Of a stretch of 64,000 nucleotides of DNA, positions 5,498-58,996 are shown piece after piece. Positions within the stretch are counted from its first letter, which is position 1. Each line of letters begins with the position of its first letter. Source of the stretch: a virus (taxonomy: Duplodnaviria > Caudoviricetes); IMG/VR virus record IMGVR_UViG_3300027819_000006; one strand, written 5' to 3'. The notes below the pieces were generated by a model, which was not told the origin of the DNA, made no database searches, and saw only the letters and a program-made list of their open reading frames with translations. A program made the position numbers and the translations under genes.

Positions 5498-5614
5498 AGC
5501 CAAGCAATTGTAATCTACAATAGACTATGAATCTAGTAGTTGCTTGGCTCAAACTATTGGTTAAGTTTATTGTAGATTACAATATAAATATATTTATAAG
5601 AGAAATAAATGCAA
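5498..5614 (-). promoter_or_regulatory. Class II promoter plus interleaved inverted-repeat leader (X-Y-X'-Y')
   Basis: ttgtaatctacaata 5508-5522 / 5568-5582 and agccaagcaa 5498-5507 / 5540-5549; TTGCAT...TATATTTATATT upstream. Confidence 0.75.
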
Positions 5615-5619
5615 ATCAC

Positions 5620-5769
5620 TCACTGCTGGATAGGGCCATACGAAATTCCCATGAGATCGAAATTTCCAGAAATGCAGCTGTAACACTCGGGTGGCATCTT
5701 ACTGTTTTCAATAAATCCAGTGAGACAGACTACCTTTTCTAATAGAGATGAATCTTTAGTTAATTTCAA
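5620..5769 (-). pseudogene. Displaced N-terminal stub of the lysin at 3902-4648
   Basis: TTG start with GGAG RBS; MKLTKDSSLLEKVVCLTGFIENSKMPPECYSCISGNFDLMGISYGPIQQ*; 29/46 identical to the lysin N-terminus by hand alignment. Confidence 0.85.
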
Positions 5770-5815
5770 ATTAACTCTCCATATTAATTGTTCAATATAA
5801 ATATATAATGCTAAT

Positions 5816-6115
5816 CTATAATGTCAGAACAGTATAGTCTCTTAACATTTGTCTGAACGGTGAAACTTTCTTTTTAGGATACAACTCTTCATCAGCTTTC
5901 ACAAAATCTTCATATTGTAGAGTAACAATATTCATATATTCGACATAGTCCATATCTTCTTTATTAACTTTCAGTTGTTTTACTCTTTCATTTTTAATCT
6001 GTACAGCTCTTTCTGCTATTTTTACTCTTTTAGCATAAACTGCGTTATCAAAATGAGCCACAATTGTTGGCATAAAAGCTATCAATATGAAAAGAACAAT
6101 GCAAGCTATGATCAT
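5816..6115 (-). CDS. hypothetical membrane-anchored protein
   Basis: N-terminal hydrophobic segment. Confidence 0.45.
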   Translation of the reverse strand: MIIACIVLFILIAFMPTIVAHFDNAVYAKRVKIAERAVQIKNERVKQLKVNKEDMDYVEYMNIVTLQYEDFVKADEELYPKKKVSPFRQMLRDYTVLTL

Positions 6116-6132
6116 TTCTATACTCCTCTTAT

Positions 6133-6173
6133 GTGAACTAATTCCACCTAAAGGTTGGAATCTTTCTTTTTGA
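6133..6173 (-). mobile_element. 41-bp IS200/IS605-type remnant (fused left/right end hairpin)
   Basis: gtgaactaattccacctaaagg matches the right end at 27599; ggaatctttctttttga matches the left end at 28972-28988. Confidence 0.65.
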
Positions 6174-6177
6174 AATT

Positions 6178-6558
6178 TTATGTAAAATAAGCAATTGCTA
6201 AATAGTTACACAACAAATGAAATGTATTATCTGTAACAATGTAGACTAACCACTTAATAGATTCTATTCTGTCTGATCTCAGACCAGTGATTTCACAAAC
6301 TTTATGTTCATCAATACAATCTACATACATGTTTCTGAATTTGCAGAAAAATTTAGCCAATGAAAATCTATCTAGAATGAAATGACTGCTGAAAATTAGC
6401 AATACAGAAGCATAAGATAGATGTAGAAAATAAGCAAATGGAAGACTATATGTTATACAGTGAGTAATACAGATAAGAGAATCTTTAGACTTGTTTAAAG
6501 CCATTCTCTCAGTTTGCAACAGATAGTCTCCAACTAGATGACAGAGTAATTGTAACAT
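6178..6558 (-). CDS. DUF3307-like membrane protein
   Basis: HLVGDYLLQ...HCITY...HFILDRF...DNTFHL. Confidence 0.65.
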   Translation of the reverse strand: MLQLLCHLVGDYLLQTERMALNKSKDSLICITHCITYSLPFAYFLHLSYASVLLIFSSHFILDRFSLAKFFCKFRNMYVDCIDEHKVCEITGLRSDRIESIKWLVYIVTDNTFHLLCNYLAIAYFT

Positions 6559-6756
6559 TTAATCTCTCTTCTTGATTATTGTTATATCTAGTGCAGTTTT
6601 CAAATAAAACATGACTGCAGGAATTGGTCCAATTACTAGAGAAATCAATATAGTAAAAATTATATCAAACAACGTTAAATCATACTTTTTTGAATCAGAT
6701 ATGATATTGAATGCAATTCCAGATATAGCCCATATAATATAAAGTAAGATTGACAT
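6559..6756 (-). CDS. small membrane protein
   Basis: Two hydrophobic segments; abuts neighbours. Confidence 0.45.
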   Translation of the reverse strand: MSILLYIIWAISGIAFNIISDSKKYDLTLFDIIFTILISLVIGPIPAVMFYLKTALDITIIKKRD

Positions 6757-7640
6757 TTATCCATTCTCCTGTAAATAATCATTTGTGATTTCTACTAATA
6801 GTTTGTCTATGGCTTTATCATTTGGTGAATACGGCAGATCACTAGTTTCATACAGCTCTTCCATTTCTTTATCATATTTCTCAGCAATTTCTATGATCTC
6901 TTCATATGTATATTTACCATTTCTAATAGCTAACAGTTCTTCTCTGTCATGCTCTCTGTAAGTAATAACTTGTTTATCTCTGTATTTCTATACCCATTCT
7001 CATGAGTCTGAAAAGATGAACACAGTGTTTTGTATCTACTTTATATTTTTCCTCTAACTCTGCTCTTTCTTTATTTCTGTTTTGCTTCCAATGCTCATAC
7101 TGTTCATATTTCTTTTTAGCATTCTCATATGCATCTTTATCAAAATAGTATCCGCCATTTTTAGTATATTCTTTTGGAATATCAAACATATTTGTTTCTA
7201 GCTTTTTCAGGTATTTCTCTGGTTCTGGCTTTGGCGGAGGATTATCTATCCAAACTTTATGCCCTTTTACTCTCTTAAGTTGACTATATGCGTAACCTGC
7301 GAAGCGGTGACGTGCTAATTTTGATAAAAATATATCTCTATTGTCAACCAATCTTTGTCCATTTGTCGCAGAATAGAATATTTTTAGGGTGTGAAAATAA
7401 AAGTTCTAAAACATTGGGATTGCAGTCTCTTGCAAGCTGAACAAACTTGTTTATAGAATATATTACAGTATCTGGCTCTTTATATTCTTGTTGCTCAAAT
7501 TTGTGCAGTCCATAGTAGAATTCTCGAGGTGCTATGCAAATCCCACGTATGTCTTCATCTGACAAAGAAGTAGAAATTCCATAGCCTATGCTGCCAGATA
7601 TACATTTGAAAATAGTTCTTTTTTCAATCCAATCAAACAT
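6757..7640 (-). pseudogene. Nucleotidyltransferase (RlaP / Pol-beta superfamily), two frameshifts
   Basis: SGSIGYG...SDEDIRG, NPNVLELLF, FAGYAYSQL, KHCVHLFRLMRMG; shifts near 7347 and 6975; third piece REHDREELLAIRNGKY...ENG*. Confidence 0.75.
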
Positions 7641-7842
7641 TTTTAATCCTTGTCATAAAATCTACAACAGCTACAGAAATATTTTGTAACAATTCTAATA
7701 GTTGTGTTTTAATTTTATCGTTGAAATCTTTAGAATCAAAAATGTAAGCGTTCATTTTCTTTATTTCATCTGGAATAGTTATAAGATTCTCAGACATAGC
7801 TGACTCCTTTGAAAGTTTTTAGCAACCATTTTGTAATGTTTA

Positions 7843-7871
7843 AATATAAACAATTTGCTATGAAAAGTAAA
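7843..7871 (-). promoter_or_regulatory. sigma70-type promoter (class I)
   Basis: TTTACT-N17-TATATT. Confidence 0.7.
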
Positions 7872-7880
7872 CAGATATTT

Positions 7881-8048
7881 TTAAACATCAATTATGGACT
7901 CTAAATAGTAATTTGGTAACATATCTTTGTTCATTTTCAAAATATTGTTAAAACATGAATCTAAAATGTAAGTATTTGCATAATCTGTATCATTTCTTAT
8001 AGATCTACCGCAGCCTTGAAGTATCTCGACGATCGTCTTCCACTGATA
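7881..8048 (-). pseudogene. Duplicate (displaced) C-terminal 55 codons of the DinG-like helicase; predicted TnpB guide source
   Basis: YQWKTIVEILQGCGRSIRNDTDYANTYILDSCFNNILKMNKDMLPNYYLESIIDV*; 36/55 identical to helicase 9364-9531; same length (168 nt). Confidence 0.9.
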
Positions 8049-8052
8049 ATTG

Positions 8053-9237
8053 CTATTTGCAGCTGCTTTCTTTGTCAGAGGGATTATAAACTCCTCTGTG
8101 CAGAATGTTTAAAGCAGCATTATAGTCTGCATCTAAACTTAGACCGCATTCCAGACATAAAAATTTATCTAATTTCCTATTTTCTTTATGTTTGAATCCA
8201 CATGAAGAACATTCCTGACTAGTATAGAAAGAAGAAACTTTCTTCAACTCTATACCCTGTTCTTCACACATCGACTGTAATTTTGAAATAGTTTTTGTAT
8301 AAGACCAATATTGCATTTTATTATTCATTTTCTTAGAATATTTTGATTTGTGTTTTACATTTTTCAAATCTTCTAAAACAACAATGGAGTTATTATAAAA
8401 ATCAATTTTATTGCATATTTCATTGATCTTATTATCTTTAAAAATAAGATATTGCTTATAATTTATAGACCCTCGTTTCATATTTGATAATTTAGTATAC
8501 AATTGTTTCATTTCTACACCATAGACATCATTGTTTGAAGAAACTAGAAGCTTATCATACCCGATGTCAAAAGCAACAGCAGCTTGCTGTTGTTTCAGCA
8601 TTATTTCTTTTTCATAAATAAATGTAATATAAAAATTACCATGTATTTTTCTTAGCAATATCGTATTTTTTCTATTCCAATTTTTGTATTTTAAAGATTG
8701 TTTATGTTGTTTGATAGGTAGATTAATTTTAAAAGCTCTTCTTTTGCTTTTTAAATATGGTAATTTTATGCCTATAAATTCATCAAAATGAGATGAAGAT
8801 TTATCATAACTTATAATTCTATAATCCATATTTATGCATATGTTTTTTATATTGATTCGTATTCTTGAAAATATATGATTTAATCGAAGCTCTGAAAATC
8901 TTTTACTCAGAAATTTTAACTGTCTATTATTTTTAGCGAAATATTTATAGCATTTTTTATATCTACTATATCTTTTATTTCTAGCATATCTAATATTAGA
9001 GCGTATTATTTCAGAAGCTTGTTTATGTATTATCTGTTTCCATCTTGAGTGTATTATTATGTTTGAGCTAACAGATTCAAAAAATTTAGCACTATTTAAG
9101 TCTGGTTTTTGCTTCAATATTTGTTCTATATAAAATATAAGATCTGTTTTATAGTCTTCAAAAACTTGCTCTAGCTGCTCTATCTTATTCTTATTAGAAA
9201 ATTTTAAAATGTGAGTGCTGCTTCTTTTTATAATCAA
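8053..9237 (-). CDS. tnpB: TnpB-family RNA-guided nuclease (RuvC triad apparently intact)
   Basis: AVAFDIG (RuvC-I), VVLEDL (II), SQECSSCG...CLECG Zn ribbon, DADYNAALNI (III). Confidence 0.9.
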   Translation of the reverse strand: MIIKRSSTHILKFSNKNKIEQLEQVFEDYKTDLIFYIEQILKQKPDLNSAKFFESVSSNIIIHSRWKQIIHKQASEIIRSNIRYARNKRYSRYKKCYKYFAKNNRQLKFLSKRFSELRLNHIFSRIRINIKNICINMDYRIISYDKSSSHFDEFIGIKLPYLKSKRRAFKINLPIKQHKQSLKYKNWNRKNTILLRKIHGNFYITFIYEKEIMLKQQQAAVAFDIGYDKLLVSSNNDVYGVEMKQLYTKLSNMKRGSINYKQYLIFKDNKINEICNKIDFYNNSIVVLEDLKNVKHKSKYSKKMNNKMQYWSYTKTISKLQSMCEEQGIELKKVSSFYTSQECSSCGFKHKENRKLDKFLCLECGLSLDADYNAALNILHRGVYNPSDKESSCK

Positions 9238-9257
9238 GTATATATCTCAAATAAAAA

Positions 9258-9361
9258 TGCCAAGTATTGGATCTTAAAAGACTATATGTCTAAAGATACT
9301 TGGCAGTTGATGTCAAGCCTTTTAAGATCCAATAATAAATATGAAATATAGAATAATGCAA
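9258..9361 (-). promoter_or_regulatory. Class II promoter plus X-Y-X'-Y' leader of tnpB
   Basis: ttggatcttaaaag 9267-9280 / 9319-9332; tgccaagta 9258-9266 / 9297-9305. Confidence 0.75.
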
Positions 9362-9363
9362 TA

Positions 9364-10977
9364 CTAAGCATCTATTATGGCATCTAAAAAATATTTTGGA
9401 AATAAATTTTTGTTCATTTTTAGCATATTATCGAAACAGGAGTCTAGAATGTAAGTTTTAGCATAATCATTTTCACTCCTTATAGATCTACCATAAGACT
9501 GTAATATTTCTGCTACAGATTTCCATTGATACCAGTCAGGCATAGTTTTCAATCTTTTCTTTACTTTTGGTGATGCTAAATTTGGAAATGGCACTTTGAC
9601 TATAATCTGAAATCTAGACAAGTCGTCTTTCAAATCTATACCATTTGTCATAGACGGAGATACAATCACTGAAGCATTTGTTGATTCATAATGCTCTTGT
9701 AGCTTGTCTTCTCTGTCATCTATATCGTGAAATATCAATCTATCATTATCAATACTGTGCATAATGATATTAGATATTTCGTAGCTATTAGTATGAATTA
9801 TGCCTTTTTCATTTTTGTGCTTATTCAAAATTGTATTTATAACTTGAGGTAAGTCTTTATAAGTATCATGTTTCTCTCTGTATGACAGCTTACCGATATC
9901 TAAATTGTACACCAATCTATTCTTGACTTCAAATGGAGAATCTAGACTCATATATGCTACATCTTGTTTTAGACCCATGTAATTTTTGAAGAAATTTTTA
10001 TTAAGAATAGTACCAGACATGAATATTACATGATCATAGTTCTTCCATATCATTTCTAGATGATCTTTGCCCCAGACTAATTCTGTTTTCAACACAGTCA
10101 AACCATCTTTATCTTTCTCTTTATAAAATACCCATTTTTCTGTATTATCTTCAGATTCATTTATAAATCTGTTAAATTTACAAATTACTTTATCTAAAAA
10201 TGAATAATCTTTTAATATTTTCAATTTTACATTTTGCACTGCAGCTAACTTGCATTGTTCTTTCAATTCTTTGTATCTAATATTTAAAACTGGTATTAGA
10301 TCATCAGTTACAAATTTAATATAAGTTTCTATTGATCCAATTCTATCAAGCTTAGACAGAAGTCTTGCATTTTTTATACCCCATCTGTTCATAGAACTTC
10401 TAGATATTGTGGAAGAAATGAATTCACAGAACACTTCTTCAAATGAATGTGCTTCATCTACGAATAGAACATTAGAACATCTTTTTTCTATAAATGTTGG
10501 AACATATATTAAATATGATAAGTAGACATGAAAATTTGCTAAACCCACTTTAGCATTTAAAAATTCTTCATATGCAGCTTTAGATGGACAGAAACTGCAT
10601 TCTGTTTTATTGAGCTTGTTTAAATCTTGTCCATCATCACAAGTCAGATTCCATTTTTCGCAGTTATAGTTATTCTTACCTTTGATACTTCTGATGAAAT
10701 CAAAATCAGCAGTATATTGATTTTGTAGAATTTTAGTATTAGTTAGAATATCAAATTTAGCATTTTTATCTATATTCTCAACATACCACTTCATTGCCAT
10801 GACAGCAAAATAACTCTTACCACACCCTACAGAAACGTCTAATAATAAAAATTTCTTCTTAGAATTGATTGACTCTTTGAAGAAATTTAACATCTGGTCT
10901 TGTTGCTGTCTTGGATTATGCTTTAGAGTGATCATAGAAAATAAATGAATGCACCTATTATAGGAATTTTGCTCCAT
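9364..10977 (-). CDS. DinG/Rad3-like SF2 helicase
   Basis: VGCGKS Walker A, FVDEAH, MSGT, IIHTNSY, SPSMTNGIDL, QSYGRSIR motif VI. Confidence 0.9.
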   Translation of the reverse strand: MEQNSYNRCIHLFSMITLKHNPRQQQDQMLNFFKESINSKKKFLLLDVSVGCGKSYFAVMAMKWYVENIDKNAKFDILTNTKILQNQYTADFDFIRSIKGKNNYNCEKWNLTCDDGQDLNKLNKTECSFCPSKAAYEEFLNAKVGLANFHVYLSYLIYVPTFIEKRCSNVLFVDEAHSFEEVFCEFISSTISRSSMNRWGIKNARLLSKLDRIGSIETYIKFVTDDLIPVLNIRYKELKEQCKLAAVQNVKLKILKDYSFLDKVICKFNRFINESEDNTEKWVFYKEKDKDGLTVLKTELVWGKDHLEMIWKNYDHVIFMSGTILNKNFFKNYMGLKQDVAYMSLDSPFEVKNRLVYNLDIGKLSYREKHDTYKDLPQVINTILNKHKNEKGIIHTNSYEISNIIMHSIDNDRLIFHDIDDREDKLQEHYESTNASVIVSPSMTNGIDLKDDLSRFQIIVKVPFPNLASPKVKKRLKTMPDWYQWKSVAEILQSYGRSIRSENDYAKTYILDSCFDNMLKMNKNLFPKYFLDAIIDA

Positions 10978-11291
10978 TTATCAACAAATCTATCTTTCCA
11001 ATCTATTTCATTAGCTCGAATATAAATTCTATTTTCATCTTTTTCATCATACTCTATGTGATACAAATCAGTTTTAAAATATGCTTTACTTTCGCATAAC
11101 TTTATAATATGTTTTGCATCATCTACACATTCAATAGATATTTTTATATACTTTTTATCTCGCACTTTATCAAGCTCACGTAATCTTGAAAAATCAAAAT
11201 AGACGACTTTTTTTTCAGCATATTTTGCATTTTTCAATTGATTCAATTTATCTATGATTGAATCTACTATATCTTCTATACTTTCTGACAT
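10932..11291 (-). CDS. hypothetical protein
   Basis: 119-aa ORF. Confidence 0.45.
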   Translation of the reverse strand: MSESIEDIVDSIIDKLNQLKNAKYAEKKVVYFDFSRLRELDKVRDKKYIKISIECVDDAKHIIKLCESKAYFKTDLYHIEYDEKDENRIYIRANEIDWKDRFVDKWSKIPIIGAFIYFL

Positions 11292-11486
11292 TTATTCCTC
11301 TCTATTGTAATGAGACAAGTCTTTTATCAAATCTAAGTTTTTACCGCCTCTTCTTATATAATCTAATCCGCCGTCTGTAAATGTTTTATTTTCACATTTG
11401 CACATTTTAAAATCATGTCTATGCTTTGATTCTAAAATTTCTCCACAAGACAAACATTCACAGATATTTCTATACTGTTTTTGCAT
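11292..11486 (-). CDS. small Cys-rich phage protein
   Basis: CLSCGEILESKHRHDFKMCKC...DGGLDYIRR, a common phage motif. Confidence 0.6.
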   Translation of the reverse strand: MQKQYRNICECLSCGEILESKHRHDFKMCKCENKTFTDGGLDYIRRGGKNLDLIKDLSHYNREE

Positions 11487-11948
11487 TTACTTATCTCCAT
11501 AAATCCACACAATTGGCCACAAAAATCCAACTTTTCTTATTTCAATATCTCTTTTAGCATCTACTACAGCACATCTTGCATTTGCCAAATCTTTATTTGC
11601 TTGTGCTAATTGATCTACAATAGTTCTAATTGGAGAATCAGCATTTGCTACTACGAGTAGATTGCCATTATCTATATTTTTATTATCTTTGATTAGTCCA
11701 GATAGTTCTTTGACTCTGTTATCAAGAATCTGAATTCTTTCAAATTGTGTCCTGAGAGTTGCTAAGTTTTTAAAATGGCTATCTGAATTTACAGCAAATA
11801 TCAGCGAAGAAAATAAAAATAGTACTATAGAAAAGAATGCATAAATTCCAGTTTCAAAATGCTCATTATCACTATTTGTTTCATTTCTTCTAATATATGC
11901 TAAACTTGCAAATAATAAGCATATAGAATATAAAAATATGAATAACAT
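11487..11948 (-). CDS. membrane protein with coiled coil
   Basis: Two N-terminal TM segments. Confidence 0.5.
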   Translation of the reverse strand: MLFIFLYSICLLFASLAYIRRNETNSDNEHFETGIYAFFSIVLFLFSSLIFAVNSDSHFKNLATLRTQFERIQILDNRVKELSGLIKDNKNIDNGNLLVVANADSPIRTIVDQLAQANKDLANARCAVVDAKRDIEIRKVGFLWPIVWIYGDK

Positions 11949-11961
11949 TTCTATCTCCCTT

Positions 11962-12252
11962 TTAATTTCCAGATGACAGCATCAAAGTTTCTACAGAACC
12001 TAAAATTCTACTAATCATTCTTTTGTGATTTTCACAAGTTCTGATTTTATGTCTTATAAGAGATAGTTCTCCTCTTTGCTTATTTTCTAATGCTTCTGAC
12101 ATTTCATTGTGCAGAACAGAAATGTTCAAAGACTCTCCATCGTACTTCTTCCTTAATTGTAGCAGAATTTGCTCATAAGTAATATTATCTTCAGTATGAT
12201 TCATATGTAGTAGTGTCTTATAAAAGCTGTGCATTAGTGATATCTGAGCCAT
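11962..12252 (-). CDS. hypothetical protein
   Basis: 96-aa ORF. Confidence 0.4.
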   Translation of the reverse strand: MAQISLMHSFYKTLLHMNHTEDNITYEQILLQLRKKYDGESLNISVLHNEMSEALENKQRGELSLIRHKIRTCENHKRMISRILGSVETLMLSSGN

Positions 12253-13333: not shown

Positions 13334-14320
13334 AAAATCTTCAATTCTTTTAATTTATTTTTATCCCATAGTTCGATTGGAATTTTGATACACTCCTGTA
13401 ATAGTGCAGGATATTTTTCACTACCATCAAACCATCCTTTAACCTCTATTATTTTTAATATTTCCTTCTATATCATAAACTATAAAATCTGGTAAATAAC
13501 TTCTATCTCTTATTATACATATTCTAAATTGTTCATATTTCCAAATAATGTTATTATTGTCGAAATATTTAGCGACTTTTGCTTCCCAAGTAGATTTAAA
13601 ACATATACCATTATAATATATTTTCTTTCCATGAGCTCTTGGTTTGCCAAATCTGGGATTTTTAATCCCTTTGGCCACTCCCTTTGATTTTCTTGTATTG
13701 GAAACACTATTTGCTAATTTTATCAGCCTAACATCTGTTTCTTTAGTTAGCCCTTTTTGCCAAGATGTCCAGCCATTAGCTACTAATTCTTTTTTTCTAT
13801 CAGACATTCTTTTTTTAGTTTCTTCAGAATGATTTCTACCATAAAAAGAAGCATTCTCGCCTGTACAGGAACCTGTCAATATTTTAGTCATGCATCCTTT
13901 TTCATGCCATTCTCTAAATTTTTCATCTGTATCTTTAGTCTTTCCTTTTTGCCAATTCACTATATTTCCTAAAGCATACCCCTCTTTTATAACTTTCGAC
14001 ATATTGCTTCTATATTCTTCAGAAAATATTCGATGAGAATTTCTACAACCATAACACATATTGCACTCTGCTTTAACTTCATTAAGACATCCTTGAACAG
14101 CGCAATAATATGTTAAAGAAGCTACACATTCAGAGCATCTATCTCCTCTATATCCAGTTACTTTGCTTAATATATCTCCACAAGTAGTGCATCTTTTTCT
14201 GTTTTTATTATATTCTGCTGCTTCACATTCTTTGCAAAATTTACTTTTTCTTCTACCATCATAAATATTGTTGCATATATCAAAATTTGAACATTTCGTT
14301 ACTCTCATCTTCTTCTCCAA
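13330..14320 (-). pseudogene. Homing-type endonuclease (Cys-rich + NUMOD3 + PD-(D/E)xK), frameshift near 13450
   Basis: SFYGRNHSEETKKRMS, KSTWEAKVAKY...YLPDF; other frame continues IIEVKGWFDG...LKIL*, whose stop overlaps the purA ATG. Confidence 0.75.
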
Positions 14321-14321
14321 C

Positions 14322-14448
14322 TAGTAAAGCCGATTAGTATCATCCTGATAGGGTATCCTACTGGCTAATCGGCTTTACTACAAAGTATATTTATGATTAA
14401 CCTATCAGAATGATAATATAAATATACTCTTGGAGAAAAATAGTACAT
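14322..14448 (-). promoter_or_regulatory. Class II promoter plus X-Y-X'-Y' leader
   Basis: tagtaaagccgattag 14322-14337 / 14365-14380; (at)ctgatagg 14342-14352 / 14401-14411. Confidence 0.7.
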
Positions 14449-14461
14449 TTTAAGGTTGTAA

Positions 14462-14508
14462 CTTTGCCTCATCGCCTGCCTCCCCTCATAGACGCAATCT
14501 ACATACAT
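14462..14508 (-). pseudogene. Probable displaced N-terminal stub of purA
   Basis: ATG 4 nt after upstream stop; with one restored base reads MYVDCVYGGEAGDEAK vs intact FVDAVIGIDKGDESK. Confidence 0.6.
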
Positions 14509-14512
14509 GCTT

Positions 14513-14818: not shown

Positions 14819-15000
14819 TATTCCTCCGCTACTGATATTTCAAAAATTTCATAGCCAAAGTTCTTAGCATAGAAATGCTCTTTCATTTCTTCATCTGCAT
14901 CTTCATAGCTATCATATAGTTTAACTTCATCATTCTCTTCTTCTATGGGTATTATTTTAGTGCCCTTCTGGTTGAACATCATCACGAAGAACATAGTTTT

Positions 15001-17501: not shown

Positions 17502-17503
17502 AG

Positions 17504-17851: not shown

Positions 17852-17860
17852 TCAATGCTC

Positions 17861-19034
17861 CTAAAATGTTAATTGCTGTGATTTGTTGTTTATAATACAA
17901 TTTAAATCTTCTTTAAATAAAATATGATATATTTTAGATTCTTTTTCATATAAACGCAAAAAATTTGCTATTTTTACTTTGCTGTTTTCATATGTATAAA
18001 TTGATTTAACTTCTTCTATTCTTATCAAATTATCATTTTCGTCATATATGAAAAAATCGGGAGTATATGTAGTTCCATCTAGTTTATAAGTTATTTCTTC
18101 ATATTTTGATATAGAATCTAAAAATTGAGCTCTTTCTAGTTCATAAGATGATTTTAAATATGTTTTGTTATATATTTTGTCCATCTATCAGTATTAGTGT
18201 ATTTATCATGCCACATTAATAAAGCTGTTTTCAAACCATATTTTTCAATCCAAACATCGAAAACAGATTTACCATACATTCCATTATTTTTACCATAAGT
18301 TGGGCAAGTTTCGCCTGTCAGACCTAATCTGTACGGAATAATTTCTCCTGAAGCATATTTTATTTTTAATGCGTCAGAAATATTTTTTTACATTCATCTG
18401 ATAGAGGAATTCCAAAACTGTGTGATAATTCTCCAGTAAGACCTTTATTCCACTGAATTCTGCCATTAGCAAATTGATCTTTTAACGTTATAGATACATT
18501 TTCTGACTGTTTTCTAACTCCGTCGCTAGTTTCTTTAGTGAGACCAGTATTCCACTGAATTCTTTCATTGGCAAACTGATATTTTAAAGTTTCTGAAATC
18601 TGCTGCTTCTCTTCTTCAGTGTGTAATCTTCCAAAATTATGGCATAGTTCTCCAGTCAATCCATAATTCCATGCATTTTCTCCTCTAGTTTTTTCATTTC
18701 TGTCTTCCCATCTCCCACTTCCTTCTTCTTCTCCATATTTTTCTATTATTACATTTTTTATTCCTCTACAAAAGACACTATGTTCTGACATATATTCAGA
18801 TAATTTGTAGTTATTACACTTCCGACATAGTTCTGCACTTCTGTTCTTTTTGTTTCCACATTTGCAAAATTTTAAAGATAGATAATACGATAAATTAGTG
18901 TTATTTTTTATTTCGATACTGAGATCTTCTATTTTATTAATGTTTTTATCTATTTTATAGTCACATTCTTTACAAACATTAGTAATATTGTTGAGCGATA
19001 ATTTGTTTGTGTTGCATATGCTGCATAATTTCAA
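17861..19034 (-). pseudogene. Homing-type endonuclease (Cys-rich, WNxGLT repeats, PD-(D/E)xK), multiple frameshifts
   Basis: Pieces 18366-19034, about 18184-18365 and 17861-18184 (KSSYELE...YTPDFFIY...IEEVKS). Confidence 0.7.
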
Positions 19035-19047
19035 GTTATTTCTCCAA

Positions 19048-19157
19048 ATAATAAAGCCTATAGTAATTGGTACAGAAATAATATTGCTATTAAGTCTTCA
19101 CTATAGGCTTTATTATTTCTGTACCAATATAAATATATTAAGAAAATTAAAATACAA
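19048..19157 (-). promoter_or_regulatory. Class II promoter plus X-Y-X'-Y' leader
   Basis: attggtacagaaataat 19066-19082 / 19112-19128; ataataaagcctatagt 19048-19064 / 19100-19116. Confidence 0.75.
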
Positions 19158-19908
19158 GCTGTTGCGATTTATTAGGATTTCCCAAGCTTGTACTTGTACT
19201 TGAGATACTGCGAGAAATGAATGCACACAATTTAGCCAATTTACCAGGACTAGCCTCACCAACATCAATGTACTGAGTCAAATTAGCTTCATCTTTAAAC
19301 TTATTCAGCACGTAACTACAAATTCCATCTTGAGTGTTAATTCCTACTAGAACTGTGATCATTGACTCAAGCTTCTCTTCTTTTGTCACTTTTGCAACCT
19401 GATCTCTAATCATAGATGGAGTAACTCTTGAAGCATTATCTACACCATCAGTGATAATAAACATAATAGCATTTACAGTATAGTCTTGATCAGATAGCAA
19501 CTGTCCATATTTTACAGTGGAAGCTACTGCATCAAATGTGGCATCATATAGAGAAGTCATTCCTCCGCAGTTGAAAGGAAGATAATCTTTATCTACATCA
19601 ATTTCATTTAAATTCTTGAATCCATGAATCTCCTTTACTCCAATTCCAGAATTGAATTGGAGAGCTCGTACAAGAATATTTTCAGACTTTGGTGCTTTCT
19701 TGCAAGAATTGACTGCACTTTTAAGTGCATCTAAAAGATTGTTTGCAAATGGTTCTACTGAACCTGTAATATCTGTTACGATTGATACAAGAGTATATTC
19801 TGTTTCTGTTAGAGCATCAGGTCTGACAGCAGAGAATGTAAATGATCCATCTGCAGCTGTGAAATTCTGCATGCTACCATCTGCATTTTGATTAAGGAAC
19901 TTAGGCAT
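19147..19908 (-). CDS. vWA-domain protein (TerY-like)
   Basis: VTDITGSV MIDAS-like motif, GMTSLYDA, FIITDGVDNAS. Confidence 0.8.
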   Translation of the reverse strand: MPKFLNQNADGSMQNFTAADGSFTFSAVRPDALTETEYTLVSIVTDITGSVEPFANNLLDALKSAVNSCKKAPKSENILVRALQFNSGIGVKEIHGFKNLNEIDVDKDYLPFNCGGMTSLYDATFDAVASTVKYGQLLSDQDYTVNAIMFIITDGVDNASRVTPSMIRDQVAKVTKEEKLESMITVLVGINTQDGICSYVLNKFKDEANLTQYIDVGEASPGKLAKLCAFISRSISSTSTSLGNPNKSQQLVF

Positions 19909-20607: not shown

Positions 20608-20619
20608 TTTTGTATCTTT

Positions 20620-21423
20620 CTATTTTAGAAATTTATCATGAGTAGTTAAATTAAGTCCTCTTTTTACTAGTGAATCTAAAACTTTATTTGTATTATCCTC
20701 AAATCCAGGAATAATAGAACAACAATCTTTCACTAGATGTATTTTTTGAATATTCTCTTCTCCAAAATTGGCACAAATGTCGATCAAACTATACAATACG
20801 CAATGTGATAAAGCTTCGCCATAGAACCCAATTACATCGGCTCTCTGTAAAGTCTCAATTAATCTAACATTTAATTGAGTTGAGGGATCGTTTGAGTCAG
20901 GGACATCTGCAACCAACACACCAAAATGTTCCGTCGTGTAGTTGCTCCCCTTGGTAACGTAATCTACCATAGCAACTCCTTTTTCCCATTCAAGAAGCTG
21001 TTCTGCTACTGGAGAGATAACTGTAGCTCCGACGGACCCTATGAGGCAATGCGGTGGCCAAATACAAAGTTTATATCTGCCATTCTTTGCCAATGTCTCA
21101 GTATATGTTAGCATCTTTTGTGTTTCAGCAGGATTTGAAGGTTTCCATACTCCATTTTTTACATCTTCATAAGAAATAATAGTAAATGGATTCGGATGAT
21201 TTCCTTTTGAGTCTACCCAGAAAATAGGATGTGCTACGTCGTAGAAATGATGAGTATCTAGCGTTACATGGTAGTCATCTACTCTGTCTCGAATTCTTTC
21301 CATCATTTTAACCATTCTCAAAACATCTTGATCAGCACCAGGAACAAATAGCTCTCCACTTGGTGAACAAAATGATACCTGTGTGTCGATCATTAAACAT
21401 TCTATTTTCATATTAGTCTCCAT
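20620..21423 (-). CDS. Nicotinamidase / isochorismatase-family hydrolase; likely start 21411
   Basis: MIDTQVSFC, TLDTHH, WPPHCLIGS, KGSN..TEHFG, GEALSHCV. Confidence 0.85.
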   Translation of the reverse strand: METNMKIECLMIDTQVSFCSPSGELFVPGADQDVLRMVKMMERIRDRVDDYHVTLDTHHFYDVAHPIFWVDSKGNHPNPFTIISYEDVKNGVWKPSNPAETQKMLTYTETLAKNGRYKLCIWPPHCLIGSVGATVISPVAEQLLEWEKGVAMVDYVTKGSNYTTEHFGVLVADVPDSNDPSTQLNVRLIETLQRADVIGFYGEALSHCVLYSLIDICANFGEENIQKIHLVKDCCSIIPGFEDNTNKVLDSLVKRGLNLTTHDKFLK

Positions 21424-22337
21424 ATTAATTTAACTTCATCTTCCCAGACTCTAACTATTCTATCTATAACCATTGTTTTTAGCAACATTATTTTTATTAT
21501 GATCACTGGCAATTCTCTCTTTCCAGTTAAATGGTTTTTATATCCCTCTCTACAATGCCAATAATTTCCATCTACTTCTATAAGTATATTATAATCAATT
21601 AATAAAAAATCATAAACACTATACCTATTAGTGATTTCATCTAATATAAAGAATTGTTTTTTAAAATTTATGTTACACTCTATAAGCAGCTGCTCCATTT
21701 CTAATTCACATTTAGTAGTTTGATATTTTCGATTGCATAAAGATTTAGCAGCAGATAAAGATCTTTTAGCTTTTTCTTCTTCACCCATTACTCTACCTTT
21801 AGTTGTAATACCTCCATCTTGATAAAATTTTTTCAAACCCTCTGATATTTTATTTTTTGTTTCATCAGAACTAATTCTTTCAAAATTCCAGTGTAATTCA
21901 CCAGTTAACCCTTTATTAAATTGTGTTTCAGATATCTTATTGTTTCTTTCTATCCACATCTGCTCAGCTATTTCTATTCCATGTTTTAGAATCCAAATAT
22001 CTAAAACAGATTTTTCAAAAGTTCCATTTCTAGATCCAGAACTTGCACACTTTCTACATCTTACTCCTGCACTCTTTACTTGATTTTCACAATTTTCTTC
22101 TATACAATAATATATACGATGTTTAGGACATTTAAATTCTCCTTTTAAAATTGATTTTTGATATACTCTAGAAGTGCAGTTTTCTTCTGAACAATACGTG
22201 CTATTTACTGCTGAATGATATCCACAAGTGTTTTGGCCTTTTTCAACAGCACGTACACTAGCTTCATTATTGCATTTATCAACGACACATTTCACTTTTC
22301 TTCTCCATAAATAAATATGCCAAGCTGTGTACTCCAA
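21408..22337 (-). CDS. Homing-type endonuclease (Cys-rich + NUMOD3-like + DUF559); likely GTG start near 22295
   Basis: TKCELEM...VYDFLL..ILIEVDGNYWH...VRVWEDE. Confidence 0.75.
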   Translation of the reverse strand: MEYTAWHIYLWRRKVKCVVDKCNNEASVRAVEKGQNTCGYHSAVNSTYCSEENCTSRVYQKSILKGEFKCPKHRIYYCIEENCENQVKSAGVRCRKCASSGSRNGTFEKSVLDIWILKHGIEIAEQMWIERNNKISETQFNKGLTGELHWNFERISSDETKNKISEGLKKFYQDGGITTKGRVMGEEEKAKRSLSAAKSLCNRKYQTTKCELEMEQLLIECNINFKKQFFILDEITNRYSVYDFLLIDYNILIEVDGNYWHCREGYKNHLTGKRELPVIIIKIMLLKTMVIDRIVRVWEDEVKLIWRLI

Positions 22338-22431
22338 AATAGACTGTTAAGTCTAAAGGCAGCTTGGCAATAGATTTATGAATCTATTTTGGAGTACAAT
22401 ATAAATATATTTGACAGAGAAGAAAAGACAC
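22318..22431 (-). promoter_or_regulatory. Class II promoter plus X-Y-X'-Y' leader
   Basis: tgtactccaaaatag 22328-22342 / 22384-22398; tgccaagctg 22318-22327 / 22360-22369. Confidence 0.75.
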
Positions 22432-34339: not shown

Positions 34340-35227
34340 TTATGCAAGAGCTAATTGTTTCATGAATATGTCGAATTCAACTTCTACAAATAACTCGTTA
34401 TGTTTGCCCATGTCTTTTATAATATAAACTTTATAGCCAGCTCTTTCTATTTCTTTTATTTTTATCTTTTCTCTACTCTGTACTTGTTCGACTGAATGTT
34501 TATCTGCTACTTTCTTATAATGCCAAATACCATTCCATAAAATTGCAGTTTTAATATCTTCTATTATTACATCTGCATCCCAACCATTAAAAATAGCTTC
34601 ATTATGCAGTACGTTTTTAAATTTTCTGCAACACAGTTCATAAAAATATATTTCATTCTTGCTTCTTCTTCTTAATCTCTGAGAATTAGCAGATTTTTTA
34701 CCAGCTTCTCTTGCTTTAGCTAAATATTCAGCAGAAGATCTTGTACATGTTTCACAGCAATATTTTTTATTTGAATCTATTCTTTTCAAAAACATTTTTT
34801 GACAATTGATGCTATTACATGTTACTTCTATTCTTTCTATTTTATGAATATTTACTATTCTGCCGCTTACATAACCTGATTTAATAGTATTTGATACTTT
34901 TTTTCGAGTTTCTTCACTGTGTGTTCGCGCATGCGAACATTTATCAGAACAGCATTTATGAGATAGAGCATTATCTCTAATTCTTATTTGAGTTTCGAAC
35001 CATTTGTTACATCTATCACATTTGTGAAAAACTTCAACCCATAAAATCTTTTTAGCTTTCGACTTTATACTTTTAGATAATTTCTGTAATGATTCTTCTG
35101 AAAACTTTCTTCCATAAAAGGGATTATTAGACCCTTTTAAATTTATTCCAGTGTTGCAGAATCTTTTGTGAGATGTTACTGCTCTTTTAGATTTAAAATA
35201 TCTATCGCATGTATCACATTTTATCAT
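34340..35227 (-). CDS. Homing-type endonuclease (Zn finger, NUMOD3, Vsr/DUF559-like)
   Basis: NPFYGRKFSEE, HSEETRKKVS, RSKNEIYF...WDADV...LWNGIWH. Confidence 0.75.
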   Translation of the reverse strand: MIKCDTCDRYFKSKRAVTSHKRFCNTGINLKGSNNPFYGRKFSEESLQKLSKSIKSKAKKILWVEVFHKCDRCNKWFETQIRIRDNALSHKCCSDKCSHARTHSEETRKKVSNTIKSGYVSGRIVNIHKIERIEVTCNSINCQKMFLKRIDSNKKYCCETCTRSSAEYLAKAREAGKKSANSQRLRRRSKNEIYFYELCCRKFKNVLHNEAIFNGWDADVIIEDIKTAILWNGIWHYKKVADKHSVEQVQSREKIKIKEIERAGYKVYIIKDMGKHNELFVEVEFDIFMKQLALA

Positions 35228-35332
35228 TGAACTATCTCCTCAGTGTTTATACTATAATAAATATAAACATCAAAGAGAAAAGTTCAACTACATATTACCC
35301 CAATCAATACTGTTTATTGAAGCAATATTTCT

Positions 35333-37110: not shown

Positions 37111-37118
37111 CTATTTAT

Positions 37119-37237: not shown

Positions 37238-37821
37238 ATTAAAATCTTTAATTCATTTATGCATTTTAAAACATTTTCTTTAACATCTTGAGCTTCAAAT
37301 CTTATAACTTTCCAACCATTTTCTATACTAAATTTATCTCTTCTTTCATCTATTAATTTAACTTTTGGTAAATTATGTGTAGACCCATCAATTTCAACAT
37401 CAATTTTTAAATCTATAAAAGCAAAATCATAACAATATATACTATGCTGATAATTGTATATCCATCCTTCAATGTTTGAATATTCTAAAGCATTTTTGAA
37501 TATTTTTTCTGGATAACTCATTTTAGAGCAATGATTTAGTTTGTATGGAACTTTTTCTGGATGTTCCATTAAATATTTTATTCGATGTAAAGATAATTTG
37601 TTTCTAGTTTCTTCAGTGTGATGTCTGCCTGTCCAATATATTCTTGCTGATTCTGATCTTTTCTTCCTCAATATTTCACTTTTATCATTATCAAGACAAA
37701 ACATTACATGAGAAGTCATTTTTTGTGGTATATCAAAACAAAATTCTTTTTTACAATGTTTGCATACATATATTTTCATTATGATCCTCCAATTATATAA
37801 TAAATATAACTGTCGAATCAT
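37228..37821 (-). CDS. Homing-type endonuclease (NUMOD3 + DUF559)
   Basis: WTGRHHTEETRNKLS, SYPEKIF...YDFAF..IDVEIDGSTH...GWKVIRF. Confidence 0.8.
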   Translation of the reverse strand: MIRQLYLLYNWRIIMKIYVCKHCKKEFCFDIPQKMTSHVMFCLDNDKSEILRKKRSESARIYWTGRHHTEETRNKLSLHRIKYLMEHPEKVPYKLNHCSKMSYPEKIFKNALEYSNIEGWIYNYQHSIYCYDFAFIDLKIDVEIDGSTHNLPKVKLIDERRDKFSIENGWKVIRFEAQDVKENVLKCINELKILMGL

Positions 37822-37842
37822 AAAAGACTTATGTAAAAAATA

Positions 37843-37878
37843 TTTAATAAGCTAGTTCCAGTCATGGTGTACAAGTGC
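37843..37878 (-). pseudogene. 5' fragment of a split tRNA (possibly Lys)
   Basis: GCACTTG-TA-...-CTAG-CTTATTAA. Confidence 0.55.
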
Positions 37879-56111: not shown

Positions 56112-56297
56112 TTAATTTCTCTATAATGTTTTGTTTTCTAGTGCTAATTGTAATTCTGTTAAAAACAAGTCAGACACACATGCAATCTGACATAGCAAGA
56201 TTCATTTTCGAGATGTGAAATTTCTACTGCATCTCTTTTAAGTATATTTCTGCCAAGAGTTCCTTGAATGAATTTCTTGCAAACATCACAAATGTAT

Positions 56298-56657
56298 TTA
56301 GTTTCTTTCATCTGCTGTTTTTCTATTTAGCAATTTTACTTTACTTGGATGAGATAGTTTAAAATCTTCTTCTATATCTTTTTCTACATCTTCTCTATAG
56401 CCAAAATAACCTTTCAGATATCTTTTGCATCTAGCATTGAATTCTATTTCATCATTTTCTTGTAAATTTAGTTTAGCAAACCCTTTTGTATATGAGAACC
56501 ATAGATGATCAGTTAAAATGTTACCTTCAGCATCTTTTACATCTTTCAGAAGTACAGTCTTTTCTGGTCCTCTATAGCCATTTTTAAGTCCAAATCTAGA
56601 AAATGTAGCTGTGAATTTTAATCTTTCTTCTTCTATTTTTTCTAATTGTTCTCTCAT
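56298..56657 (-). CDS. hypothetical protein (conserved phage family)
   Basis: FTATFSRFG...TDHLWF...EFNAR..Y.KGY. Confidence 0.55.
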   Translation of the reverse strand: MREQLEKIEEERLKFTATFSRFGLKNGYRGPEKTVLLKDVKDAEGNILTDHLWFSYTKGFAKLNLQENDEIEFNARCKRYLKGYFGYREDVEKDIEEDFKLSHPSKVKLLNRKTADERN

Positions 56658-56664
56658 TTAAAAA

Positions 56665-57870
56665 CTAAATAAACTCCCAATGTTTTGTTTCTTGTCGAGC
56701 TTTAGGCATTTCTATATTTAATAGATTGTTTTCCCAATTCTGTTTTTGTTCTGAATCTAATTGGTCATATTCTAACTTTAGATTCCAAATACTCTTACAA
56801 CTTTCGTGATTCTTGCATAGCGCAGAGCATCCTGAAAATTTTTCTTTTTCTTCTATTAAATGCATAACTTTCATTCTATTTTCGACATCATTCCAAATAT
56901 CTATAAAACTCCTCTTATAAACATTGCCATATGAATACTTCAGATGCCCACGAGTATTAGGACACACAAAAATTTCTCCTTGAGCACCTATACATGGAGT
57001 TAACTGACTACCATAGCATTTCTTATAGTGTCGACCAAAGTGAATAGGATCATCTATTAAGTCATTCAACTTATATTCGTTGATCTGAAATTTGTCTCCT
57101 AATATTTCTTTTGCTTGCTTTAATAGTGGTTTTATATCAGTTTCCCAGAATTCTACTTTTCTTTGAGTTTCTCCTTCTTTTTCTACACTGATTATTTCTG
57201 GCTTATATTGACAATAATCTACATCATAATTTTTAAACATGTTAGCAAAATCAATTATTTCAGTATAATTGTCAGGAGTTATAACAAATCCAGTACCTAT
57301 TACTGTTTTGCTATTTATTCGCTTTTTAGTTTCTATTAATTTAGACAGATTAGATAGCATTTTATTCCAATCTGTATTCTTGTTAGTAACTCTAATTCTA
57401 TTATATGTTTCTTCTGTTCCTGAATCTATTGAAAATCTGATCCATTCCATATATTTGCACATAGATTCAAATAGATCAAATTTATCTAGCATTACACCTG
57501 CTGTAAATATACCCATTTTAATGTCAGAATTTTGTCCAATATATTCTAGAACGGGTTTAAATGCGGGTGAAATTGTCGATTCTCCACCCCCTGTGAAGTT
57601 TGTGCTGCGTACTCCAATGCTTATAAGATCTTTTGCTATTTCTAATGCTTTTTCTTTTTGCATTATAGATCTGTCAAATGTTTCAGAATTCTTATATTTA
57701 TCGAAATGAATATGCGCTGACAGGCAGAAGAAACACGAGTGCATACAGCTATTTGACAAGTCCCACTCTATAAGCACTGGAGGTGGATGATTTCCTTTTA
57801 TTAGCTCGATTGTTCTATCTATATTAGCTATTATTTTTTGCTGAGGAGAGAAGATTTTTAAATTTTTCAT
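56665..57870 (-). CDS. Radical SAM enzyme with SPASM/twitch domain
   Basis: CMHSCFFC, TGGGES, RFSIDS, C-terminal Cys cluster. Confidence 0.9.
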   Translation of the reverse strand: MKNLKIFSPQQKIIANIDRTIELIKGNHPPPVLIEWDLSNSCMHSCFFCLSAHIHFDKYKNSETFDRSIMQKEKALEIAKDLISIGVRSTNFTGGGESTISPAFKPVLEYIGQNSDIKMGIFTAGVMLDKFDLFESMCKYMEWIRFSIDSGTEETYNRIRVTNKNTDWNKMLSNLSKLIETKKRINSKTVIGTGFVITPDNYTEIIDFANMFKNYDVDYCQYKPEIISVEKEGETQRKVEFWETDIKPLLKQAKEILGDKFQINEYKLNDLIDDPIHFGRHYKKCYGSQLTPCIGAQGEIFVCPNTRGHLKYSYGNVYKRSFIDIWNDVENRMKVMHLIEEKEKFSGCSALCKNHESCKSIWNLKLEYDQLDSEQKQNWENNLLNIEMPKARQETKHWEFI

Positions 57871-58855
57871 ATTAAATTCAATTCTTTCATTTTGCTATTA
57901 TCCCATATCTCTATTGGAACATCTATATTGTTTTTAGCAAAAATGAGTTTATTTTTTGATTTTTCATCCATGTATCCTTTTACTTCTATTATTTTTGTAA
58001 GTAAATTATTTTCGAATATAAAGAAATCTCCTCTATAATGATTGTTTTTATCTTGCACTACATTCATATATTCGTATTTCCATACTATATTATTATCATC
58101 TAAATAGCAACTTTTAGCTCCCAAGACGATCTCATCCAAATATCATTATAATATCCACCTTTGCCAATGCCTGCATTTTTATATGCTGGCTCGCCATAAT
58201 GATGATGATTTTCACCTCTCAAATGATCATTACAATGCTGTTCCCACATTTCTAAAGCTTTTTCTCTACCATATTTATCTGTCCAAATATCCAATATAGA
58301 TATACCATACATAGGATTTCCTTCTCCTACATACAGTATCTTATTCCTTTCACTAGTTTTTATAGATATTGCTTTTAATCTATCATCTGTATCTTTAGTC
58401 AATCCTTTATTCCAATTTGGACTTATTATATTTGAGCAAGACATGCAATATAATTCATTCCTACCTATCTCTTTATAGCAAAAAATACATCTACCTTTGC
58501 AGTCTTTGCATATATAAGTATTATTGTTCCATGACAATTTATTTCCACAATACATGCAAAGTTTATCTATAGTGGGAACATGTCTGCATTCTGGGCACGC
58601 ATCATAATCATATTTTATTGTTAAATAATGTAATACTTTATTACAAAATCTGCATCTTTTTCTATCATTGTCTACACACTCACAGCATCTAGTTCGCTCT
58701 TTTGAAGAATTATTACCTAATTTATTATTACAACTTTCACATCTTCTAATTATAATTAATTTTGATTTCTCCAATAAACAATGTTTGCAAACTCCATGGC
58801 TATTTTTATTACCTAATCTATTACTGCACCCTTCTTCTTTACAAAATCTTATCAC
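57867..58855 (-). pseudogene. Homing-type endonuclease (Cys-rich + NUMOD3-like + PD-(D/E)xK), frameshift near 58100
   Basis: WNKGLTKDTDDRL, MRSSWELKVA, then WKYEY...DFFIF..IIEVKGY in the next frame. Confidence 0.75.
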
Positions 58856-58874
58856 TTTCTCTTCTCCATAAATA

Positions 58875-58996
58875 GAAATAGCTTATAGGTGTCTGAAAAA
58901 TACAAATTACTGTACTTTTTCCTATAAGCTATTTCATTATTTATAGCTTGTATTTTTCAGACAATATAAATATATCTATTATAGAAGAAAAGACAT
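58875..58996 (-). promoter_or_regulatory. Class II promoter plus X-Y-X'-Y' leader
   Basis: tgtctgaaaaatacaa 58890-58905 / 58948-58963; gaaatagcttatagg 58875-58889 / 58921-58935. Confidence 0.75.

Follow-up and report, generated by a model that had tools for sequence, protein, structure and literature searches.

We identified a recurrent leader made of two interleaved inverted repeats, ordered X-Y-X'-Y', upstream of six nuclease genes in a stretch of 64,000 nucleotides (nt) from the virus record IMGVR_UViG_3300027819_000006 (Duplodnaviria; Caudoviricetes), hereafter the window. The source is an uncultured groundwater phage of 271,885 base pairs (bp; ~272 kb). All six leaders lie on the minus (coding) strand, each between a conserved 12-mer and the ribosome site of a gene that either resembles a homing endonuclease gene (HEG) or encodes TnpB. 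Four extra copies in the same genome precede one second TnpB gene and three further NUMOD3 nucleases. The leader is a real, non-random, multi-copy structured element specific to selfish nuclease cassettes, and it most likely elaborates the trick known from bacteriophage T4, by which a nuclease is translatable only from its own transcripts. Selfish nuclease genes must be expressed without harm to the genome that carries them, and the textbook answer, from T4, is a hairpin combined with an internal late promoter. The phage studied here shows the plain T4-type device beside an elaborate multi-copy version, the latter on both protein-guided HEGs and RNA-guided TnpB.

The six copies in the window (s1 to s6, preceding nuclease genes n1 to n6) span positions 5475..5614, 9235..9365, 14306..14448, 19032..19159, 22293..22431 and 58853..58996, all on the minus strand. 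The extra copies (L7, L4, L11 and L12) lie outside the window, at L001:7640-7757, L001:4075-4192, L011:615-735 and L012:2825-2937, and leader statistics are pooled over these ten copies. In transcript order, the element comprises a segment Z within the promoter spacer (in 6 of 10 copies), the 12-mer, X, a linker L1, Y, a second linker L2 that often contains a small hairpin, X', Y' abutting X', a short U-rich tract, the Shine-Dalgarno (SD) sequence and the start codon. The 12-mer is TATATTTATATT, with the consensus TATATTTAT(AT/TA)T and the variant CATATTTATTAT in s2; the SD is of the GGAGAA type and the start codon is TTG, GTG or ATG. Relative to the end of the 12-mer, X starts at -2 to +1 nt in all ten copies and the start codon follows after 91-107 nt. 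X arms measure 13-18 nt and Y arms 8-16 nt, the linkers are 0-20 nt (L1, X to Y) and 12-17 nt (L2, Y to X'), the gap between X' and Y' is 0-2 nt, and Y' ends 3-12 nt before the SD. An earlier note on this DNA had described six such leaders, with X close to a promoter motif and Y' just before the ribosome-binding region, and all of this is borne out. Its stem lengths of 9-17 bp agree roughly with our measurements, and the adjacency of X' and Y', which it put at 0-4 nt, holds with the narrower gap given above. The combination of GCCAAG in Y with an AGAC..GTCT mini-hairpin, previously noted in three copies, is present in s1, s2 and s5 and in addition in L7; L12 carries the compensated variant GCTAAG/CTTAGC.

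The coding strand (102 kb) contains 17 occurrences of the 12-mer, 15 of them upstream of HEG-like or TnpB genes. A scan of this strand for interleaved stems (both stems at least 9 bp with G.U allowed, a gap of -3 to +2 and a summed length of at least 24) returned nine loci, eight of which are leaders. The opposite strand gave one locus and twelve dinucleotide shuffles gave 0-3 (mean 1); with perfect stems only, shuffles give ~0.1 per 64 kb window. The earlier note had allowed that such repeats might equally precede ordinary genes, and nowhere in the 102 kb does the arrangement stand before a non-nuclease gene. Chance repeats in AT-rich intergenic DNA are an exceedingly improbable explanation: the genome is AT-rich (30% GC) and low-stringency scans give many weak interleaved pairs, but eight to ten strong copies contrast with about one in the shuffle controls, which contradict this reading, and the copies share one register and precede nuclease genes only. 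Not every nuclease gene has an X/Y leader: it is missing before two HEG-like genes, starting at 35227 and 37779, and before two TnpB genes, at 24059-25312 (+) and 27614-28882 (-). Both of these TnpB genes have the same type of 12-mer upstream, and the former is almost the sole plus-strand gene of the window.

Comparison of the copies revealed sequence change with pairing retained. Copy s2, before a TnpB gene, and L12, before a gene for a Zn-finger nuclease, are nearly identical over 85 nt of leader: X, L2 and X' are the same, the 12-mer differs at one position and L1 at 6 of 15 positions, while Y changes from GCCAAG to GCTAAG and Y' in compensation from CTTGGC to CTTAGC. The two TnpB paralogues (67% protein identity) keep Y, the mini-hairpin, Y' and the U tract, and their X arms are entirely different yet self-complementary; the core GCCAAG..CTTT..AGAC..GTCT..CTTGGC is better conserved between these paralogues than the coding sequence. 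When the five GCCAAG-type leaders are aligned with MAFFT, 84.5% of cells pair, compared with 25-54% when the partners are slid, and this understates the pairing of X, which is one column out of register in two rows. Six pairs change on both sides, a number reached by 2 of 500 shuffles. Internal stem mismatches are few (2 G.U, 2 A.C and 5 other). The earlier note had taken such changes to indicate selection on RNA structure; the changes with retained pairing stand, selection on RNA structure is likely, and a DNA-level origin of the perfect repeats is possible.

A third pairing involves Z, a pyrimidine-rich, copy-specific anti-SD segment directly upstream of, or overlapping, the 12-mer. A duplex search found a proximal Z in s1, s3, s5, s6, L7 and L11; its 3' end falls between -3 and +2 nt relative to the motif start, and the duplex energies are -13 to -19 kcal/mol. 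In every copy the 12-mer, a putative promoter whose spacer Z occupies, lies between the Z region and X. When read-through RNAs were folded, the SD paired with Z in six of the eight copies folded, and in RNAs starting 6 nt past the motif the SD was open and Y:Y' formed. The mean predicted cost of opening the SD and start codon is 7.4 kcal/mol on read-through RNA versus 3.5-3.8 kcal/mol on own transcripts; it is 4.4 kcal/mol with Z scrambled, and scrambling X or Y leaves the occlusion unchanged. Cognate Z/SD duplexes average -13.1 kcal/mol versus -8.6 kcal/mol for non-cognate ones, and none of 20,000 permutations reached the cognate value; thus, Z and the SD region co-vary copy by copy. Ranked by complementarity of the SD to upstream sequence, nuclease genes take places 1, 2, 5 and 7 among 63 genes. 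The genes flanking the leader cassettes are all on the same strand, and we found no terminator-like site on the coding strand in 4800-24700.

The two HEG-like genes without X/Y have exactly the simple T4 form, in which Z, the putative promoter and the SD make up a plain hairpin. One hairpin (35227..35300, -) stands before the NUMOD3 gene 34340-35227, with its 12-mer at 35254-35265 and a predicted SD opening cost of 17.5 kcal/mol on read-through RNA versus 1.9 kcal/mol on its own transcript. The other (37779..37850, -) precedes the DUF559 gene 37228-37779, with its 12-mer at 37797-37808 and corresponding costs of 15.1 and 1.0 kcal/mol. A cluster of 13 tRNA genes lies at 32400-37240 (-) among HEG-like genes with such plain promoter-in-hairpin control. 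The analogy drawn earlier with the ribosome-site hairpins of T4 homing endonucleases holds.

Folding of the X/Y module predicts two balanced states. With X intact, the X and Y folds differ by no more than ~8 kcal/mol in nine of ten copies, and findpath barriers for their interconversion are 16-30 kcal/mol. On nascent RNA extending up to X', the X:X' helix is full or nearly full in nine of ten copies (s3 forms 8 of 13 pairs), and with the first 7 nt of X removed, Y:Y' is favoured by 7-21 kcal/mol. Both helices together are geometrically impossible in s4, where L1 is 0, and in L11, where an L1 of 8 nt would face a stacked helix of 31 bp; the reading common to all copies is therefore two states rather than a pseudoknot, as the earlier note had suggested. 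In s4, an extended Y pairing of 19 bp has AAATAAT (7 nt) in common with X, so that the two folds truly overlap there. The 10 nt spanning the end of Y' contain on average 5.7 T, versus 3.3 upstream of other SDs, and at least six T in 7 of 10 copies versus 8% of other genes; these U-rich copies include all four that lack a proximal Z. When the Y fold forms, its stem is lengthened by L2 and part of X', which gives a long hairpin closed by a small apical loop. Y:Y' with its U tract resembles the terminator-like hairpins of A tract, stem and U tract elsewhere in the window, and looks like a terminator with an insertion.

We propose that the leader is a cis-acting mRNA element of mobile nuclease cassettes that makes expression depend on where the transcript starts, a reading to which we give roughly even chances; this and every other mechanism discussed here were derived in silico. 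On read-through RNA from an upstream co-oriented gene, folding predicts that Z would pair with the SD region and that X:X' would form first and be kinetically locked. On RNA without Z and the first ~7 nt of X, the SD would be open and the Y:Y' helix favoured. The 12-mer would be a promoter with its start site a few nucleotides inside X, as with T4 late promoters, so that the cassette's own transcripts would adopt the Y fold and be translatable, and host-operon transcripts would adopt the Z and X fold and be silent for the nuclease. We infer a start inside X because Y:Y' is conserved with compensation yet forms only when X is incomplete, and because X sits at the edge of the motif.

The part played by the inner helices is less certain. 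Tentatively, Y:Y' and the U tract may attenuate transcription in the manner of a terminator, holding down the nuclease mRNA made from the cassette promoter, or may act as a 5' cap, with X:X' preventing this hairpin on read-through RNA. Such blocking of the Y hairpin would leave transcription of downstream phage genes uninterrupted. A bolder version, which we consider rather unlikely, is that X/Y forms a portable bistable sensor of transcript origin, in which X antiterminates host-operon RNA and Y terminates most of the cassette's own transcripts, releasing an RNA of ~80-95 nt. The released leader RNA would show X' in a loop and could act in trans on X of read-through mRNAs. The selfish cassette would then be transcriptionally invisible, and the device would have been swapped among unrelated homing endonucleases and TnpB. 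If the two folds really do tell read-through RNA from own transcripts, the module would offer a compact way, independent of sequence, to shield an inserted gene from the operon that hosts it, of interest for mobile-element biology and synthetic circuits. In that case the leader would also count as a new candidate among RNA motifs, overlooked by sequence-based catalogues because its topology alone is conserved.

Several observations weigh against dependence on transcript origin. The promoter role, strand and start site of the 12-mer are themselves inferred, and a single genome supplied all ten copies. Most copies have a -35-like hexamer 16 nt before the first TATATT (with other spacings in s2, s4 and s5); if this element is used, transcription may start at the first base of X, which would leave X intact and the Y fold unexplained. 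The stems show no excess of G.U wobbles and so give no pointer to RNA or to this strand, and we therefore argue for an RNA-level role from register rather than from wobble pairs. No Z was found in s2 and s4, and L12 and L4 have distal candidates only, the one in L4 weak. The s3 copy has no U tract, the 'loop' of the Y hairpin is 30-45 nt, and a standard terminator scan calls no copy. Forcing the X:X' or the Y:Y' fold leaves SD accessibility unchanged in the thermodynamic model; since scrambling or forcing X/Y leaves the occlusion of the SD the same, the interleaved pair is probably not itself the ribosome-site gate. Of the switch at the ribosome site suggested by the earlier note, the occlusion stands, but it comes from the outer Z:SD pairing, which that note did not list, and not from X:X' or Y:Y'.

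Three readings compete for the role of X/Y: origin-dependent attenuation or antitermination, which we prefer; a structural spacer or 5' cap; and a DNA-level origin. As a spacer, X/Y would serve because the content of the Z:SD loop must self-fold to keep Z and SD close, and no termination would be involved; on own transcripts the 5' hairpin would protect from 5'-end-dependent decay and the U tract would be a ribosome standby or S1 site. Z alone explains the predicted occlusion, scrambling X and Y together lowers it slightly (from 7.4 to 6.7 kcal/mol), the position of X at the motif edge also fits a start at its first base, and no canonical terminator is called. We nevertheless find the spacer doubtful, about as much so as the sensor, as a single hairpin would do and the two interleaved, abutting helices in all ten copies are left unexplained, as are the energy balance of the two folds and the sufficiency of a plain hairpin for two other HEG-like genes. 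A pseudoknot with both helices formed, or a Y/mini-hairpin platform bound by a phage protein or by the nucleases themselves (as operator, cofactor or antitoxin-like module), would account for the interleaved topology and for a Y core better conserved than TnpB paralogue coding sequence. Leader families also partly track nuclease families, and most copies have an L1 (12-20 nt) that could bridge stacked helices. The geometry of s4 and L11 excludes the pseudoknot for those copies, and a platform sits poorly with a nearly identical leader before TnpB (s2) and a Zn-finger HEG (L12), two Y families without a common core, the lack of an Rfam match, and TnpB guide RNAs that lie 3' of tnpB while homologous TnpB genes have no leader. 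We regard pseudoknot and platform alike as improbable. The RNA cofactor or antitoxin-like module raised by the earlier note is likewise unsupported, with unrelated nucleases sharing the leader and TnpB and HEG homologues elsewhere doing without it.

At the level of DNA, the repeats might be cassette ends or recombination sites, or quasi-palindromes kept perfect by template switching, with no role in RNA. The missing G.U excess among internal mismatches fits this, and so do perfect leaders before broken nuclease genes and cassettes s1 and s2 bounded by duplicated host-gene ends. The 85-nt nearly identical leader before unrelated genes also fits and points to recombination between leaders. The arms, however, are 27-53 nt apart, which is unfavourable for cruciform extrusion, and no third copy of any arm occurs in the window, for example at the other cassette end. 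A role in the transcript is indicated by the constant register in which the repeats stand to the promoter motif, Z, the U tract and the SD; leader orientation always follows the gene. We therefore hold a purely DNA-level origin to be quite unlikely, and prefer origin-dependent attenuation or antitermination. An H-type pseudoknot was rejected as the general form (loop L3 of 0-2 nt with stem S1 of 13-18 bp), being possible only for copies with an L1 of 12-20 nt. A TnpB omega RNA (reRNA) or an IscB-type 5' guide RNA was also rejected, the leader lying 5' of tnpB and being common to unrelated Zn-finger nucleases. We also ruled out that X or Y derives from another part of the window (a target site or the far end of the cassette, for example), as no arm is repeated there.

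The outer layer of the leader is known T4 logic, and the inner bistable X/Y module is new among the libraries searched. In T4, I-TevI, I-TevII, I-TevIII and segB, and likewise mobE of Aeh1, have an SD-pairing hairpin with an internal gene-specific promoter, and the late genes e, soc and 49 are under the same type of translational control (PMC2988022). In both systems, selfish nuclease genes lie within transcription units of the same orientation, an RNA structure pairs the SD on read-through transcripts, and a promoter (here putative) sits inside that structure, so that own transcripts lack the inhibitory 5' arm. In contrast to T4, an extra module of 80-90 nt with two interleaved, mutually exclusive helices lies here between the putative promoter and the SD, and the long-range Z:SD pairing spans ~115 nt, with Z missing in 4 of 10 copies. 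The promoter motif here is TATATTTAT(AT/TA)T and not TATAAATA, TnpB genes use the leader too, and the system is described from sequence and folding models. We also considered TATAAATA on the opposite strand as a general T4-like late promoter and rejected it, its coding-strand occurrences being scattered and mostly intragenic.

The inner module invites comparison with the trp, pyrBI, T-box and riboswitch attenuators, which likewise have two alternative folds, one of them a stem with a U tract just upstream of the gene, and in which the helix transcribed earlier precludes the later one. Unlike in those attenuators, the competing helices of the leader share no nucleotides except in s4, so that their exclusion is topological; the terminator 'loop' measures 30-45 nt, and in place of a ligand, leader peptide or tRNA trigger, none of which is evident, we propose the 5' end of the transcript as the selector. 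Intrinsic terminators and RNase E processing sites lie inside or near T4 mobE, segF, segB and segG (PMC2988022). These resemble the leader as a layered damping of HEG transcript levels near the 5' end of the gene, but the T4 terminators are canonical and short-looped, lie inside the coding region and have no antiterminator partner. Seg43(25) of Aeromonas phage 25 has a very stable hairpin of unknown function just upstream of, and excluding, the ribosome site (PMC2988022). It is similar in placing a stable hairpin before the ribosome site of a free-standing endonuclease gene, but the hairpin stands singly, has no interleaved partner and does not belong to a multi-copy family.

The leader s1, which extends from Z to the start codon, has Z at ~5593-5611, the 12-mer at 5581-5592, X at 5568-5582, Y at 5540-5548, X' at 5508-5522 and Y' at 5499-5507, followed by the SD (5484-5489) and a TTG start (5475-5477); its Z:SD duplex is predicted at -17.7 kcal/mol. 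Gene n1 (4896..5477, -) encodes a Zn-finger/NUMOD3-like protein of HEG type with a Pfam C2H2 finger, and next to it lies a diverged duplicate of the N-terminal part of the gene downstream. The TnpB leader s2 has no proximal Z; its variant 12-mer lies at 9332-9343, X at 9319-9332, Y at 9296-9304, X' at 9267-9280, Y' at 9259-9266, the SD at 9245-9248 and the TTG start at 9235-9237. The tnpB gene itself (n2, 8053..9237, -) matches the Pfam family Cas12f1-like_TNB (E 7e-20). In s3, Z is at ~14429-14441 and the 12-mer at 14415-14426, with X at 14401-14413 (one U.G), Y at 14365-14380, X' at 14340-14352, Y' at 14322-14337, the SD at 14313-18 and an ATG start at 14306-08. It precedes n3 (13439..14308, -), which has a Zn finger, NUMOD3 and an endonuclease-I/DUF1064-like C-terminus. 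L1 of s3 (14381-14400) and of L4 (L001 ~4108-4122) contains an 11-13-nt inverted copy of the promoter motif, which on read-through RNA would provide a fourth pairing, with X and X' in two facing loops.

Leader s4 has its 12-mer at 19126-19137, X at 19112-19127, Y at 19100-19111 abutting X, X' at 19067-19082, Y' at 19053-19064, the SD at 19040-45 and a TTG start at 19032-34. Its gene n4 (17861..19034, -) is a split HEG-like gene with a DNA-binding open reading frame (ORF; 18366-19034) and a nuclease-domain ORF (17861-18184). In s5, Z lies at ~22407-22428, the 12-mer at 22398-22409, X at 22384-22399, Y at 22360-22368, X' at 22328-22342, Y' at 22319-22327, the SD at 22301-06 and the GTG start at 22293-95; its predicted Z:SD duplex of -18.9 kcal/mol is the best of the 63 genes. 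The gene n5 (21408..22295, -) is of HEG type, with a Zn finger and a Vsr/DUF559-like part. Leader s6 comprises Z (~58974-58994), the 12-mer (58963-58974), X (58948-58964), Y (58921-58933), X' (58890-58905), Y' (58877-58889), the SD (58862-67) and a GTG start (58853-55). It precedes n6 (57867..58855, -), a second split HEG-like gene with a Cys-rich part (58100-58855) and a nuclease-domain ORF (57867-58139). Genes n1 and n3 to n6 have in common Cys-rich N-termini and repeated NUMOD3-like modules of the WNKGLTKETD type.

The earlier description of these genes as PD-(D/E)xK nucleases plus TnpB is correct for n2, which is TnpB, and for n3 and n5, which have PD-(D/E)xK-type C-termini; it is amended for n4 and n6, whose nuclease domain lies in the next ORF, and for n1, whose match to a PHROG family labelled HNH endonuclease is weak. 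The leader stems are perfect even before three nuclease genes that are split or interrupted: n4 (17861-19034), n6 (57867-58855) and the gene behind L12 (L012:2937-3750), which has a stop. A start-stop or a mini-ORF of 5-16 codons, terminating within Z or X or overlapping one of them, follows a strong SD (AAAGGAG) at ~22432-22460 (s5), ~58975-59010 (s6) and L012:2785-2850. Such sites may be left over from host-gene starts that were displaced, or may serve as a coupling device. A 90-nt leader without interleaved repeats (62184..62288, -) stands before a broken NUMOD3/endonuclease-I-like HEG at 61325-62186.

The cassettes contain the putative promoter as well as the leader, and those of s1 and s2 begin just behind the stop codon that ends a duplicated and diverged piece of the neighbouring host gene. 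The duplicates bracketing s1 are 5617-5770 and ~4490-4633 (47 aligned residues of a gene N-terminus), and those bracketing s2 are 9364-9531 and 7881-8048 (54 aligned residues of a helicase C-terminus); no duplicates of host-gene ends were found within 450 nt of s3 to s6. In a search for end hairpins of the IS200/IS605 kind, no arm was repeated at the other cassette end or elsewhere in the window. No tnpA was seen beside the leader-bearing nuclease genes, without a systematic search for it. The closest foreign TnpB gene (66% identity; L009:1-129) overlaps the end of an IS607-type serine-recombinase gene, which indicates that the phage TnpB genes descend from IS607-like elements whose tnpA was lost.

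Among the collections searched, this phage is so far the only source of the leader. No Rfam family matched it: with Rfam 15, including group I introns, ribozymes and riboswitches, only tRNAs reached the gathering score in the window, and at E up to 5 the region 4800-24700 gave only spurious matches to microRNA and small nucleolar RNA families. TnpB homologues elsewhere (45-67% identity; six contigs of P0016, and P0014) have no leader, and in those of 56-66% identity the upstream sequence is an AT-rich spacer or an IS607-type tnpA gene. Among HEG homologues, the space upstream of the gene is 0-54 nt in P0002, P0003 and P0006, which leaves no room for a leader. Protein-seeded searches of IMG/VR with n3, n5 and TnpB returned no match, and a helicase query returned one 30%-identical fragment in a 222-kb contig. 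The core pattern GCYAAGYATCTTT..AGACATA gave only unrelated coding matches in IMG/VR and JGI metagenome contigs, and a 33-mer of s1 was absent from IMG/VR. Window positions 4800-9400 had no megablast match among GenBank phages, and tblastn of the L11 nuclease against phages found weak SPO1-like matches only. The genome's DNA sequencing runs contain the same phage, with no variants, and the assembly breaks at the repeated leader.

The window has 30% GC, and nearly all of its ORFs lie on the minus strand. It encodes 14 tRNA genes, a helicase, a ligase, a polymerase and a PurZ-like gene. A second promoter-like motif, GTTTAC and TATATT separated by 17 nt within TTGTTTATATT, occurs at ~7830-7875, 29100-29150 and 38030-38075 (-), and probably represents a different promoter class. 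The PurZ-like gene (12218-13333, -) matches PHROG 1211 (E 4e-54), and the phage DNA may therefore contain 2-aminoadenine in place of adenine.

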